From assembly GCF_038025025.1 (NCBI RefSeq), contig NW_027117349.1:1302001-1366000 (forward strand): DNA of 64,000 bases, read 5' to 3'. Within the stretch, counting starts at the first letter, position 1. Every line of letters starts with the position of its first letter. A model generated the notes under the pieces. It saw nothing but the letters and a program-made list of their open reading frames with translations. It ran no database searches and was not told the DNA's origin. Shown here piece after piece: positions 25,441-30,970 of this stretch. Both the position numbers and the translations under genes were made by a program. This stretch comes from Phyllosticta citribraziliensis. Lineage: Eukaryota.

Positions 25441-27310
25441 ATGGTTTTGACGCGTAGGCGGTCCTCGAGGCTCGCCAGCACGCCGCGGGTACGCTCCTTT
25501 TCCTCATACGCGCCGCAGCGCCCGAACAGATGAGTAGCAACTGACCGAGTCGCAGCGCGCCAACATTTCCCCCGCTACCGAGATGGCCTCTCCGGCGCCT
25601 ACAGCGACCCCCAAGATGCCCGCTCTGGGCGAAGTCGATGAAAGCCCTGATCCGGCACCTGTCAGGCCCGTCTCTACTCCCAAAGCCTCCGAGACTGTCG
25701 GCAAGCGCACTCCCGCCACCGAAGCTCGCACCCCGACGAACAAGAGCCCTATCGCCCCCAGTCACGTCGAGATGCATCCACAATTCCATCATCACACCAC
25801 CGCGAAGCCGTTGCAAGAGGCCCGCTGGCTCGGCTTCATGAACATGGGTCCTCAGACGGAGCCATCGAAGAAGGGATTGAGCAAGATTCCCACCACCCAG
25901 GCAACCCCGACCAAGTCTCAAGAGCTGAGCAGGACCTTTTCCCCTCCCGACTTCAAATTCACCTTTCGCAACCCGGAGCTCGAGCTCAGCCCCAAGGCCA
26001 AGAAGATGATGGAAGAGAGCAGGAAGGACGTTGAGAGGATTCGCGCACAGATGGCGGCCAACCCAGAGCAGTACGGCTTGCAGACCAACGAGGAGCTCCG
26101 GCGCAAGATTGTTCAGCCCAAGGGCAAATCCAACAGATTCAGTGATGCTCATGCGAAGGCCTTTGCGAAGATGGAGTCGATTGCCAACCACCCGTCCGCA
26201 TTTCGCAACGGCCCCAGCCGTCTCAAGCCAAGTGCCGCGGCTGGATCACTGAAGCGCTCTCCATCCAAGGCCGAGCTTGACAAGGTTGAGAAGACGACAC
26301 CCAAGATGTCGCGCTCGAGGAGCAATGTTTCGCTGCAAAATTCGGACGGCAAGGAGTCTGCAGGTCCGGCCAAGCGCGTCAAGCGGAGCAAAGATGACGA
26401 CGCCTCTGCTGCCCGGCCTGCTCCTCGGAACGGCAACGACAAGGGCCTCGAGTCCAAGAGCACCGTTGCGCCGCGCACTGGCATTCCACGCCTGAACCAT
26501 CTTACTACGCCGACCAAGGCCTCTTTGGCTCGCTCTCAGAGCGTCAAGACGCTGAAGAAGACTACACTCATCACAGACGTTCCCAAATCTCCATCGGTGC
26601 AGCACTTTACAACTCCATCCAAGGCCAAGTCGACTTTGCTCGAGGGAATCCGCAAGGTCGGCCAGTCCGTCTCGCGTTTGCCGACCGTCAAGTCCATTCT
26701 GCGTAGCCCTGTGCGCCAGTACTCGGACGACCCGGCCAAGATTGCTGCCGGCACGCACCGTCCCCAGCTGTCCGACCTCAACAAGAAGCTTCCTGCAGTT
26801 CCAGCCACCGAGCCTGTTCAGAAGCGCGTCAATTTCAGTGACAGTATCCTCGCCAGAACCAGTGATGAAGAGCCCGCGACCCCCACGGCAGCCTCGGCCC
26901 GTGCCACGTCGGACGACGTTTCGTCTGACGTAGTTTACCCCGACCTCTCCCACACATCGCCTTTCCGCAGGGCGACTGGCGACTTTACCTTTCGCGCAGA
27001 GACGGCGCTCAAGTTTGGCCCGTCCAAGCCCACGATTCGCCACGTGCGTCCCAGCGACACTAATGCTGGTGTTGGCGGTGCGTCTACATTGAAGGACGAC
27101 CAGGCCGCGAAGAAGCGCAAGGTTGACGGCGCTGGCAAGCTACCCGAGAGCGACAAGGAGAATGAGGCAGAAGAGCGTCCTGCGAAGAGGAGCAAGCCGA
27201 ACACGACTCCAGCTGCAAAGAGCAAGACGCCCAGCCGCAGCAATGCCGCGCGTGCTGGCCTCAGCCGGAACAGGCTCAACCTCCTGGCCACGCCCAAGCG
27301 CCGTGGTTGA
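25441..27310 (+). CDS. Basic, disordered S/TP-rich protein, candidate spindle/microtubule-associated; exons 25441-25488, 25556-27310
   Basis: ATG 25441 exon (MVLTRRRSSRLASTPR), intron GTACGC...CTGAC...CAG in frame with the 575-aa ORF. Motifs RFSDAHAKAFAKMESI, KSILR, KRVNF and DKEN. Confidence 0.8.
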
Positions 27311-28361
27311 GCACAGCAGGTGGGAGGGCTGCGGAGGAGGTTAGCGAATGACGTCCAGGTGGTGGCACGCCACGAGCAGGTTTTGGCCAGGGTTGGCTTG
27401 GACATCCCGGACGGCGAGCTGACGTTTTGATGTTTGACGCTGCTGACTCTCTGCTGGGCACGGGGCCAGCAGCGTCGATGGTTTTCTCACGTCGCAACGA
27501 TGCAAATGACTTTTTTCGGCTGCATCTTGTGCTTCTTGGCCCAGTGACGGCCTCGGCCTTGTTTCTACACGACTAATTTCCTTGTTCGGCGCGGCAAAAG
27601 GAGCACGGCGAATGGCAATAATGGTTGGATTTCTGGGGGCGGGCGTATTGCTGGCTAGTGGGAGATGATGCCTGATCAGGTTGGGTTTTGTTCGCGGTGG
27701 TCCGATGCGCCAGGGCTGGACATGTTGCAAGATTGACTTGAGGGTTCGGATAGGTGACTACAACGGAATGCATACGATGTTCAAAATAATTTTGTTGATG
27801 GTGGTGACCAGAATGTAGAGCGGGCGGGCACGGCCCCGACGCGGGCAGCCGAAAAGTGGCGTCTTGAGGGCAGCCTCGTCCTGCCTCTCATCCTCACCAC
27901 CAGCCAACGATAACCCAAAGCCCTACATCCATCCCATCCCGCCAGCAAGGACTTTGTCCCGCCTCTCCCTCCCTTTGCCTCACCCATCCCACCACACGGC
28001 CGTCCCGCTCCCTCTCGCAACCGTGGCGTCGTCCGTACTGTCCTTCTTAGCTCACGCTATCAACCCATCTGAGCCGCAACCCGGCTCTGCGACGACACCC
28101 TTTCCAAGTCGCCCACCGCTTGCGCTGCTGAGGTCCAAGGTCGACGACCTCCTCACGCGCTTCAACATCAGCGCCCCACCCCAGCTGTCCTACCTGCTCC
28201 CGCCCGTAGGGCCAACCGGCCTGCCCACCACGTCATCGTCCCTCGACCAGCTCGTCACTGCCGTCGCAGCAAGATACTCGCAGGACCCCGCCTCTTTTGT
28301 GGCCGTCCTCGTCGCCACACTTTTGGCCGGTCTGCTCGTCGGAGCCTTTAGCTTCCGTAGA

Positions 28362-29540
28362 ATGTCGTGGAGCAATCGCTTTGGCTCATGGAGCGGGCGA
28401 TTCAGTCCTTTTGGCCGCGGCGATAGCAGCAACAAGGAGGTGTCGGACGCCGACTTCAGCTACATCACAAACGAGGACCTGGCCGCCAGCCAGAAGAACC
28501 TGGGCGCGGCGCCCAACAGCAACTCTTCGTCCACCGACGACCTGGCCACCAACGAGACGAGCCGCGACGCTCGAGGCCAAAACAGCTATCCTGCCCACAG
28601 CGGCGCGCCCGGTCGCGACAATGCCAACGGCGACACGGACGTCGTCGTCTTCAAGCACAAGCGCGTGAGCTACCCCGTGCATTTCCCGCGGGGCTCCATC
28701 GACGACGATTCGCTGAGCATACGCGGGATGCGCGAGGCGGCGGCGCGCAAAATGGGCGTCGACGATCCGCGCCGCATCAAGCTGTTTTACAAGGGGCGGC
28801 AGCTCGAGGACGACCGTGCAGCGGTATTCTACGGGCTCCGGTCCGACTTGGAATCGGAAGTCATGTGCGTCGTCGGCGAAAAACCGTCATCGAGCCGCAA
28901 CAGCAACATGCACGCCAAAGCAACGACGACGGAAGCCCGCTCCTCCAACAGCTACAGCGACGACGAGGCTTCGTCGGACGACTACCGCTCTTCTACACCC
29001 GCCGGCGACGCCCAGGCCCAGAACAAGCGCAGCAAGAAGCGCAACCGCCGCGGCGGCCGCAAGCACAAGGGCGCGCGCGCCACGTCCGAGGTCCCGCAAC
29101 CCACGACGACAACAAACCAGCGCGCCGGCACCTACATGGGTGGCGCCGCGAGCTCCGAATTCCTCGGCGTGCCCGCCTCGACGGCGTTCCCACCGCGCCC
29201 AACATCATCCTCCTCAAGCCGCCCCTCGCCCGCCAACAAACCCACCCCCACCGCCAACGCCGGCCCGATGGACAAGCTCGAAACGCTGTCGCACAAGTAC
29301 CACGGCGAGCTGCTGCCGGGCTGCCAGGAGTTCCTCGCGCGCCCGCCGCCCGACGCCGCCAAGCGCGATTTCGAGCACAAGCGCCTCACCGAGACGATCC
29401 TCGCGCAGGTGCTGCTGAAGCTGGACGCCGTCGATACGAGTGGCGATGAGGGGGCGCGCGCCAGGAGGAAGGAGTTGGTGAGGGAGTGCAATGCCATGCT
29501 GAATCGCTTGGATGCTGTTGTTAAGCCGGCGGCGGCGTGA
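28362..29540 (+). CDS. BAG-domain Hsp70 co-chaperone with a ubiquitin-like domain (AUG-initiated form; possible upstream extension from 28023)
   Basis: C-terminal FEHKRLTETILAQVLLKLDAVDTSGDEGARARRKELVRECNAMLNRLD is a BAG domain. Ubl-like RRIKLFYKGRQLEDD. The first in-frame ATG is 28362. Confidence 0.88.
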   Translation: MSWSNRFGSWSGRFSPFGRGDSSNKEVSDADFSYITNEDLAASQKNLGAAPNSNSSSTDDLATNETSRDARGQNSYPAHSGAPGRDNANGDTDVVVFKHKRVSYPVHFPRGSIDDDSLSIRGMREAAARKMGVDDPRRIKLFYKGRQLEDDRAAVFYGLRSDLESEVMCVVGEKPSSSRNSNMHAKATTTEARSSNSYSDDEASSDDYRSSTPAGDAQAQNKRSKKRNRRGGRKHKGARATSEVPQPTTTTNQRAGTYMGGAASSEFLGVPASTAFPPRPTSSSSSRPSPANKPTPTANAGPMDKLETLSHKYHGELLPGCQEFLARPPPDAAKRDFEHKRLTETILAQVLLKLDAVDTSGDEGARARRKELVRECNAMLNRLDAVVKPAAA

Positions 29541-29776
29541 TTTGAGCATGAGAGGAGGAATGGACGCATAGCGAGCGTGAGGAAGACGGGTGGGATTGGG
29601 GTTTGATATGTAGATTTTGAGGAGGGGTTTGGATGGATGGATGGATGGATTCGCCGTGATGGGAGGAGACGTGGAAGGGAGTAGAATACCGGCGGATGAA
29701 TGAATGGACAGAAGGGTAGAAGTGAGAAGCGAGAAGCGAGAACGAAAGACTAGCGGAAGAGCATTAACCCACTTAT

Positions 29777-29811
29777 CTACCTACCTACCTACCTACCTAC
29801 CTACCTACCTA
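29777..29811. repeat. (CTAC)n microsatellite between the convergent BAG and Zn2Cys6 genes
   Basis: About 8.5 perfect CTAC units. Confidence 0.9.
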
Positions 29812-30970
29812 TCTTGCCGTCCATGTTGTCTGCCCGTGTGCCCGATCTAACTCTCTCCTCCTCCTACCCCTACATATCCATCTGTTCTTCCCCATACTCC
29901 ACGCTCCCCTTCCAAGAAGTAAAAGCGGGCTCGGTTCGTTCGCTTTACTGAGCTAGTTGGTTGGGTGCTGCAGGACGAAACAACTAATAAGTACGCCCTT
30001 TTGTTGTACGTGTGTGTATGTGTGTGAGATGAAAGGAAAAAGGAGAAAGAAGAAAGGGGGGATGCGCCGGAGACTGCCTTACCGAGTGAGGATTTTTAGA
30101 TCAAGACAGAGGTGTGTGTAATAACGGATAATTAACATGCGATTGGTGATGCGAATGTTAATTAATCTGCCGTTGTTCAATTCATACCGTCTACCGCACC
30201 CCTCCGTCTAATGGATAGGTGGCTGAATAAACGTGGAAAATTTTATCAAGAGGTGGTGCAGCACTATGTGATATACTGATCATCACCACCAACAGGATAA
30301 TTAAATAGATTTGAACAGTGCTTCAATTCTACCTCGTCTACCTCGTCTCCATCTCACCACCACCATAGCCATCATCGTCATAATCGTCGTCATCACTCGT
30401 TCATCTGTCTGCAAACGACCTATCCCGTACCCGTATCCATACACGCAACTACCCGCCCGCCCACCATCCATCCGTCCATCCGTCAAACCGTCCTACGGTC
30501 GAAAACAACAACCGACGAGAAATTTTGCCAGCTAACCAGTCCGCTCCGCTCCCGCCTTACATCAAACGCCAAAAAAAATATGAAAAGCCTAGCCAAAGAC
30601 GCGTGTACACGAAAAGAAGAGGAAGAGAGAAACTGGAAAGGGAGATGTGCGCCGAAGAGATGGGGGGAAAGGAGAAAGATGGAAAGGGGACATGACGCCT
30701 GCCTGCCTGCCTGCTTACCGGTCCAAGAAAATGAGACAAGGAAATGGAGGAGGAGAAGAGAAGAAAAGAAAAGGACAAAGGATGATGAAAGAAAAGAGAA
30801 GAAAAGTGAAGTGGGGGTATCACAGTCCGAAGAAAGCCCTCCTGCCTGTCCAGCCAGCCAGCCGTTCATCCATCCCACTCAAAAAAGGCACGATGCTCCA
30901 ATCATCGACATCGTCATCCACGCCCTCTGCCACGGGCCGTACCAAGCGCCTTGTTCCGGGGCAGTCACGC

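Follow-up and report, generated by a model that had tools for sequence, protein, structure and literature searches.

A conserved candidate GUG start and an AUG-free extension with a predicted membrane helix in a putative ubiquitin-like/BAG co-chaperone gene of Phyllosticta citribraziliensis and related fungi

The window analysed here, a stretch of 64,000 nt from the genome of the fungus Phyllosticta citribraziliensis (contig NW_027117349.1, positions 1,302,001 to 1,366,000 of the forward strand), contains on its plus strand a gene for a BAG-domain protein that probably uses two start codons, the first of which is not an ATG. The BAG frame is open from 27819 to a stop at 29538-29540 and is preceded by a TAG at 27816-27818; its first in-frame ATG is at 28362, and between 27813 and that codon all three frames are free of ATG. 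A preliminary description of this DNA, made from the letters alone, had pointed to an open, ATG-less BAG frame ahead of 28362, to a hydrophobic helix followed by RR directly before the methionine, and to a GTG at 28023 in a strong context that would add 113 amino acids, and each of these observations stands. Around the GTG the sequence reads GCAACC GTG GCG TCG, which places A at -3 and G at +4; initiation there would add 113 codons (28362-28023 = 339 nt) to the BAG protein, and the last residues of the extension are SFVAVLVATLLAGLLVGAFSF (28293-28355), then RR, then Met 28362. The 549-nt ATG-free gap is third in length among the 904 such gaps of the window, which average 70.7 nt. By itself, in a C-rich stretch, a gap of this length is only moderately unusual, and it gains significance because of the comparative data presented below. 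An ATG-TAG, that is, a start followed by a stop, occupies 27813-27818, adjoining the opening of the BAG frame and outside every RNA contig. The features of the gene are as follows.

27908-28022, plus strand: 5' leader of the BAG mRNA, free of ATG in all three frames; its 5' end is approximate, at or slightly upstream of 27908
28017-28031, plus strand: initiation context GCAACC GTG GCG TCG, from the sequence and conserved in orthologs
28023-28025, plus strand: GTG, proposed near-cognate start of a long membrane-anchored isoform, from codon conservation in orthologs and the coding-type conservation that begins there
28023-28361, plus strand: 113-codon N-terminal extension, ATG-free in all frames, under in-frame purifying selection and with multiple-of-three indels
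28293-28355, plus strand: predicted transmembrane helix SFVAVLVATLLAGLLVGAFSF, residues 91-111 of the long form, then RR, from hydropathy and AlphaFold2
28362-28364, plus strand: first AUG in the transcript, within AGA ATG T, and proposed start of a soluble isoform, the Met being invariant in orthologs
28362-29540, plus strand: open reading frame common to both isoforms, 392 codons and stop
28635-28874, plus strand: ubiquitin-like domain (UBL), residues 205-284 of the long form, from AlphaFold2 and Foldseek
29265-29531, plus strand: BAG domain, a three-helix bundle, residues 415-503, from Pfam PF02179 and AlphaFold2
29541-29765, plus strand: 3' untranslated region (UTR) with (GGAT)n and (TACC)n repeats, RNA contigs ending at 29740-29765

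The transcript is described by four RNA runs from three studies, compared as assembled contigs. Two of them, X1 and X2, derive from the same organism as the window (0 mismatches) and bear the label 'RNA?', which is a guess; because they break at the intergenic stretch, and because the BAG gene and its upstream neighbour differ in depth, they were treated as RNA. The other two, X6 and X7, are RNA-Seq runs from a related strain. The contigs that cover the BAG gene have 5' ends at 27908 (X1), 27912 (X6), 27949 (X7) and 27952 (X2), and 3' ends at 29740-29765. One X1 contig matches 27908-29740 throughout, without a mismatch, gap or joint, its sole loose end being 22 letters that we take to be sequencing adapter, and in all four runs contigs pass over both 28023 and 28362 with no joint. 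It follows that the mRNA is intronless, begins 5' of the GTG, and is AUG-free for about 450 nt. The preliminary description had seen no obvious splice acceptor for an upstream exon with an ATG, and no such exon was seen in the contigs; it had also named a transcription start site (TSS) downstream of 28023 as grounds for refutation, and the contigs of all four runs begin upstream of that codon. None of the four runs covers about 27769-27907, and contigs of the upstream gene stop at 27762-27768, although as an indicator of the TSS this uncovered stretch is a weak hint. Over the extension, the related strain retains the GTG and differs from the window by 11 substitutions (6 synonymous and 5 non-synonymous) with 0 indels; in the intergenic stretch 27300-27700 the two strains are separated by many indels.

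The closest protein matches are BAG-domain proteins of Dothideomycetes, headed by one from Botryosphaeria dothidea at 50% identity, and many of the matches bear a homologous extension with a hydrophobic helix at its end, directly before M-S-W. In an alignment of 28 proteins, M114-S115-W116 is invariant, as is the A-S right after the start position. The first residue of such proteins is unreadable as a start codon: among BAG proteins P0003-P0362 it tracks the source of the record, being M in lgn and ena entries and a literal V or L in jgi entries. Since the first letter depends on the data source, the DNA of the loci was compared instead. A candidate alternation of ATG and GTG between species was rejected, as M or V follows the data source and the DNA of 41 sequences has no ATG at the codon in question.

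The DNA comparison drew on 79 orthologous metagenome loci, of which 10 (L023, L032, L043-L047, L049, L060 and L072) are without the N-terminal region or motif and were excluded from the counts. The extension, the helix, the Met and a start of the V/L-A-S type occur together in 52 of the 79, and these 52 loci and the window make up the 41 unique sequences. Conservation of a near-cognate start among orthologs, a check suggested by the preliminary description, extends to all of them: the homologous start codon is GTG in 36, CTG in 5 and ATG in 0. Position -3 is A in 39 of the 41 and G in 2, and G at +4 and C at +5 are found in all 41. An upstream in-frame stop is visible in 39 unique sequences, 30 of which have no in-frame ATG between stop and start. 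In nine of the 39 (L005, L007, L008, L012, L021, L030, L055, L075 and L076) the stop lies at most 10 codons upstream, and so in those species only the near-cognate codon can open the frame. Within Dothideomycetes, even the synonymous positions of the GCG TCG that follows the GTG are conserved.

Some loci depart from this arrangement at their 5' end. L019 has an in-frame ATG three codons 5' of the conserved GTG (..CAT ATG CCC ACC GTG..), and may represent a lineage that gained an AUG start. Within one lineage the codon directly after the in-frame stop is ATG in L052 and L054, ATT in L059, and GTA in L053. In L024, L029, L038, L039, L041 and L050 the frame ahead of M-S-W is open and encodes a helix, and it contains neither an in-frame ATG nor a V-A-S motif; directly after the stop, it begins with ACG in L024 and with TTG in L050.

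The extension evolves as protein-coding sequence. Its ratio of non-synonymous to synonymous substitution rates (dN/dS) is 0.08-0.55 in 15 locus pairs; the 120 codons that follow the Met give about 0.00-0.14, a value computable for 12 pairs. Pooled over 10 locus pairs, the corresponding ratio of proportions of differing sites (pN/pS) is 0.27 in the BAG frame versus 1.47 and 1.97 in the shifted frames, and third codon positions hold 229 of the 386 mismatches in these pairs. All six indels within the extension are multiples of three, as against 4 of 20 in the 120 nt upstream of the start (10 pairs). The pattern of indels and substitutions thus indicates that coding-type constraint begins at the near-cognate codon. 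The selection on the extension that the preliminary description had proposed to look for is evident in the BAG-frame ratio, and neither stops nor frameshifts, which in close relatives it would have taken as refuting, interrupt the frame in the related strain; frame, helix and near-cognate start are kept together in the 52 loci. A downstream hairpin that might aid GUG recognition was also considered, and was not used as evidence: predicted RNA structure at +7 to +66 after the near-cognate start is slightly stabler than shuffled (mean z -0.90, 41 sequences) versus a mean z of +0.15 after the ATG, which is a weak signal only.

Absence of ATG from the extension is itself conserved. A count over the 41 sequences gives 3 ATGs from the near-cognate start to the Met, none of them in frame, versus 84.1 expected from composition; an equal length downstream of the Met holds 94. 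Database proteins show the same pattern, in that, of the 200 orthologs that have 60 or more residues ahead of the helix-end Met, 198 are Met-free in those 60, and the remaining two have Met there only as the first residue of the model, whereas the 60 residues after the helix-end Met hold 47 Met across the 200. Near-cognate starts use initiator Met-tRNA (Met-tRNAi), with an efficiency below that of AUG (PMC5666671), and many ribosomes should therefore pass the GUG. Removal of every AUG from the extension, together with an invariant Met at its end, matches what is predicted for leaky scanning to a downstream start that is used.

The long form of the protein is composed of recognizable parts. Pfam PF02179 (BAG) matches residues 420-498 (E 7.8e-21, 74.8 bits versus a cut-off of 23.4), and the Pfam ubiquitin match is sub-threshold, at 16.7 versus 25.4 bits. 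An AlphaFold2 model built on a 28-sequence alignment, with a mean predicted local distance difference test (pLDDT) score of 65.9, contains a single long helix at residues 89-117, a beta-grasp fold at 205-284 with pLDDT above 90, and a BAG bundle of helices 415-439, 445-469 and 476-503 with pLDDT above 95. A Foldseek search with the beta-grasp recovers ubiquitin and UBL chains (target TM-scores about 0.8, probability 1.00), and a profile search of the PDB matches the BAG domains of BAG-3, BAG-4 and BAG-5 at E 3e-7. The gene thus appears to encode a UBL-BAG co-chaperone and putative Hsp70 nucleotide-exchange factor, the exchange role being assigned from the domain. The helix includes the top 19-residue hydropathy stretch found (Kyte-Doolittle mean 2.44), and in the 39 unique sequences scored, a hydrophobic stretch abuts or includes the Met without exception (median Kyte-Doolittle mean 1.78). 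Net charge in the unique ortholog sequences is -0.6 before the helix and +2.3 after it, a bias that by the positive-inside rule predicts cytosolic UBL and BAG domains. On this charge bias, the long form is predicted to lie in the endoplasmic reticulum (ER) or nuclear envelope with its domains facing the cytosol or nucleus. A protein with a single transmembrane segment N-terminal to cytosolic domains would arise from this gene only if the GTG-started form is made.

The feature is present in Dothideomycetes, Leotiomycetes and Lecanoromycetes, the classes that the comparison covered. One group of loci was placed in Leotiomycetes by named matches (Lachnellula, Rhynchosporium, Botrytis and Sclerotinia) and another in Lecanoromycetes, the lichen fungi, likewise by named matches; loci of both groups have a start of the form AAG GTG/CTG GCT TCC. 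An ATG-started version of the same extension occurs in NCBI models of the Leotiomycetes Bisporella sp. (P0185) and Calycina marina (P0203), and the JGI-sourced P0206, P0212 and several others, from a source that prints the first codon literally, also open the extension with Met. The existence of Leotiomycete lineages with a true ATG start supports the extension being protein. As the preliminary description had anticipated of standard annotation, the extension is often missed: in each of the three classes, many NCBI ortholog models take the downstream Met as their start or add upstream pieces that are not homologous to one another.

The upstream neighbour of the BAG gene, at 25538-27310 on the plus strand, is a 590-codon open frame rich in Ser, Pro, Lys and Thr, with a low-complexity or disordered look; all four runs show its transcript, which reaches about 27765 and stops about 140 nt short of the BAG mRNA. 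Microsatellites of (GGAT)n and (TACC)n at 29621-29656 and 29766-29822 lie in the BAG 3' UTR.

From the anatomy of the locus, the structure of the transcript, the conservation of codon and context, the coding selection and the depletion of ATG, we infer that ribosomes start at the GUG, that the cell accumulates both products, and where in the cell each would lie. A fraction of the ribosomes scanning an intronless mRNA that begins near 27908 would initiate with Met-tRNAi at GUG 28023, in its optimal and conserved context, and would make a product of 505 residues whose extra 113 end in a transmembrane helix. In this long form the UBL and BAG domains would face the cytosol or nucleoplasm, as they do in Bag102 of Schizosaccharomyces pombe and Snl1 of Saccharomyces cerevisiae. 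Ribosomes that pass the GUG would next reach AUG 28362, and would make a 392-residue soluble form that lacks the helix. The extension is very probably translated from the GTG. That a membrane form and a soluble form are both made by leaky scanning, as the preliminary description had suggested, is supported by the scarcity of ATGs and by the invariant Met, and we assign this reading a probability of about 0.7.

Several observations weigh against it. Twelve of the 79 loci have a helix-bearing extension with another type of start: three of these have an in-frame ATG (L018, L052 and L054), eight have an open extension with neither an in-frame ATG nor a V-A-S type start, and one is truncated. A further five (L027, L028, L061, L067 and L073) have no helix in frame, and may have lost the anchor or contain a missed intron. 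The 41 unique sequences are related to one another, and so their counts overstate independence. As assembled contigs, the four runs neither pin down the TSS nor rule out rare splice variants, and the RNA label of X1 and X2 is a guess. ATG may be avoided only so that translation of the mRNA stays productive, in which case the short form would be a by-product. Finally, an invariant S and W flank the internal Met, and so its conservation could be structural.

In a rival proposal GUG is the only functional start, and the membrane form would be the sole functional product, Met 28362 an ordinary residue, and the short form low-level noise. In its favour, every lineage with the extension keeps the helix, the Met has an invariant S and W as neighbours and could be structural, some Leotiomycete lineages open the extension with a true ATG, and the membrane-anchored relatives Bag102 and Snl1 are single products (PMC3907333). 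It is nevertheless unlikely, given that a near-cognate codon is weaker than AUG, so that most ribosomes should reach the next, in-frame AUG (PMC5666671), and that a purge of all ATGs, in-frame Met codons included (3 versus about 84; 198 of 200), is hard to explain if the downstream AUG is irrelevant. Alternatively both forms could exist, with the short one produced mainly from a second TSS inside 28023-28361 rather than by leaky scanning. Contigs cannot reveal minor 5' ends, and dual-localised fungal proteins do sometimes arise from alternative TSSs (PMC7049704), but no contig in the four runs starts inside the extension, and an internal TSS would not need every ATG to be removed from it, which makes this origin of the short form improbable.

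Two further explanations dispense with the GUG altogether, and we give each very little credence. If 28023-28361 were an untranslated, long 5' UTR conserved for regulation at the RNA level, the synonymous conservation of GCG TCG after the GTG and the slightly stabler RNA downstream of the start (mean z -0.90) would be accounted for. Frame-specific pN/pS (0.27 versus 1.47 and 1.97), the excess of third-position mismatches and the restriction to in-frame indels would not, nor would a frame that is open in 52 of 79 loci, a hydrophobic helix that is conserved despite little sequence identity between lineages, or the ATG that opens this extension in related lineages. A normal AUG might instead come from an undetected upstream exon or from a transcript that extends further 5', as some NCBI ortholog models imply by adding ATG-bearing upstream pieces, and 9 of the 39 unique sequences do have an in-frame ATG 3 to 84 codons upstream in an open frame. 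Those pieces are, however, non-homologous to one another; in the window itself the frame is closed by the TAG at 27816-27818 with no in-frame ATG between it and the GTG, the contig spanning 27908-29740 is jointless with a loose end that is presumably adapter, and at nine loci a stop stands within 10 codons 5' of the start.

If leaky scanning from the GUG does generate both products, the gene offers a deeply conserved example of near-cognate initiation, in which codon position, context and helix are common to three fungal classes. The predicted biology of what has been reported as a single BAG co-chaperone would change from that of a soluble protein to that of a membrane-plus-soluble pair. The extension also exposes a systematic annotation error, in which models start at the downstream Met or invent upstream pieces, and this bears on experiments with BAG1 of plant pathogens that were built from the short model. 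The locus could further serve as a clean natural reporter for start-codon stringency in filamentous fungi.

Non-AUG extensions that add targeting signals, and alternative initiation in human BAG-1, are already known. On the question of novelty, which the preliminary description had left to be checked, no publication that describes a non-AUG start in a fungal BAG gene, or links such genes to non-AUG initiation, was found in literature searches. Wei et al. 2013 (J Biol Chem) reportedly lists conserved near-cognate extensions in Neurospora, among which this gene may figure. PMC5487733 and PMC7049704 do not mention 'BAG'.

Comparison with systems in which initiation has been characterized places the gene among several partial precedents. 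The longest form of human BAG-1 starts at a CUG. Human Bag-1 isoforms arise from one mRNA via alternative initiation and differ in location (PMC8384158), and BAG-1L/M/S resemble the protein described here in being UBL-BAG Hsp70 nucleotide-exchange factors whose isoforms differ only at the N-terminus (PMC8384158). The human extension differs in carrying a nuclear localisation signal and repeats, and no transmembrane helix. In Pezizomycotina, A at -3 and G at +4 matter most in the start context (PMC5487733), and Neurospora cpc-1 shares with the BAG gene near-cognate codons that are Pezizomycotina-wide, an optimal context, and purifying selection in the main frame on the extension (PMC5487733). 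Unlike the BAG gene, with its one dominant codon, membrane anchor and absence of upstream open reading frames (uORFs), cpc-1 is described in the available text as having uORFs, several candidate codons, and an extension without a targeting signal (PMC5487733). Fungal aminoacyl-tRNA synthetases provide another parallel, in that a near-cognate start in strong context, followed by leaky scanning, adds a targeting signal, and weak AUG and near-cognate codons have been swapped repeatedly in evolution (PMC7049704). The signal in the synthetases is a mitochondrial presequence, whereas here it would be a transmembrane anchor on a chaperone cofactor.

Among BAG proteins of fungi, BcBAG1 of Botrytis cinerea is described as the product of that fungus's sole BAG gene, a protein of 298 residues with UBL and BAG domains, for which the available text describes no membrane segment (PMC6467101), and it has been linked to ER stress, the unfolded protein response and BiP (PMC6467101). 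Leotiomycete orthologs, those of other Botrytis and of Sclerotinia species included, have the same extension 5' of the annotated Met. Membrane-anchored BAG proteins, to which the preliminary description had appealed as precedent, are represented by Snl1 and Bag102 (PMC3907333). Snl1 of S. cerevisiae is a BAG protein with an N-terminal transmembrane anchor in the ER/nuclear membrane (PMC3962485, PMC3907333); unlike the protein here it lacks a UBL (PMC3907333), and the available portions of both papers make no mention of a non-AUG start (PMC3962485, PMC3907333). Bag102 of S. pombe combines a UBL and a BAG domain with a transmembrane segment at its N-terminus, and resides in the nuclear envelope/ER with its domains facing the cytosol and nucleus, and Bag101 is its soluble counterpart (PMC3907333). 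The helix lies within the first 31 residues of Bag102 (PMC3907333) versus after about 90 residues here.

It may be, and we offer this as a tentative and somewhat doubtful extrapolation, that in much of Pezizomycotina start-codon choice on a single UBL-BAG mRNA replaces the two-gene division of labour between Bag101 and Bag102, and that stress which relaxes stringency shifts the co-chaperone to the membrane. Were this division of labour real, work on the 'soluble' fungal BAG1, including the links of BcBAG1 to ER stress and BiP, would have missed an explanatory isoform. In architecture the two predicted products match the Bag102/Bag101 pair; S. pombe encodes that pair in two genes, whereas here one mRNA with two start codons would give both forms.

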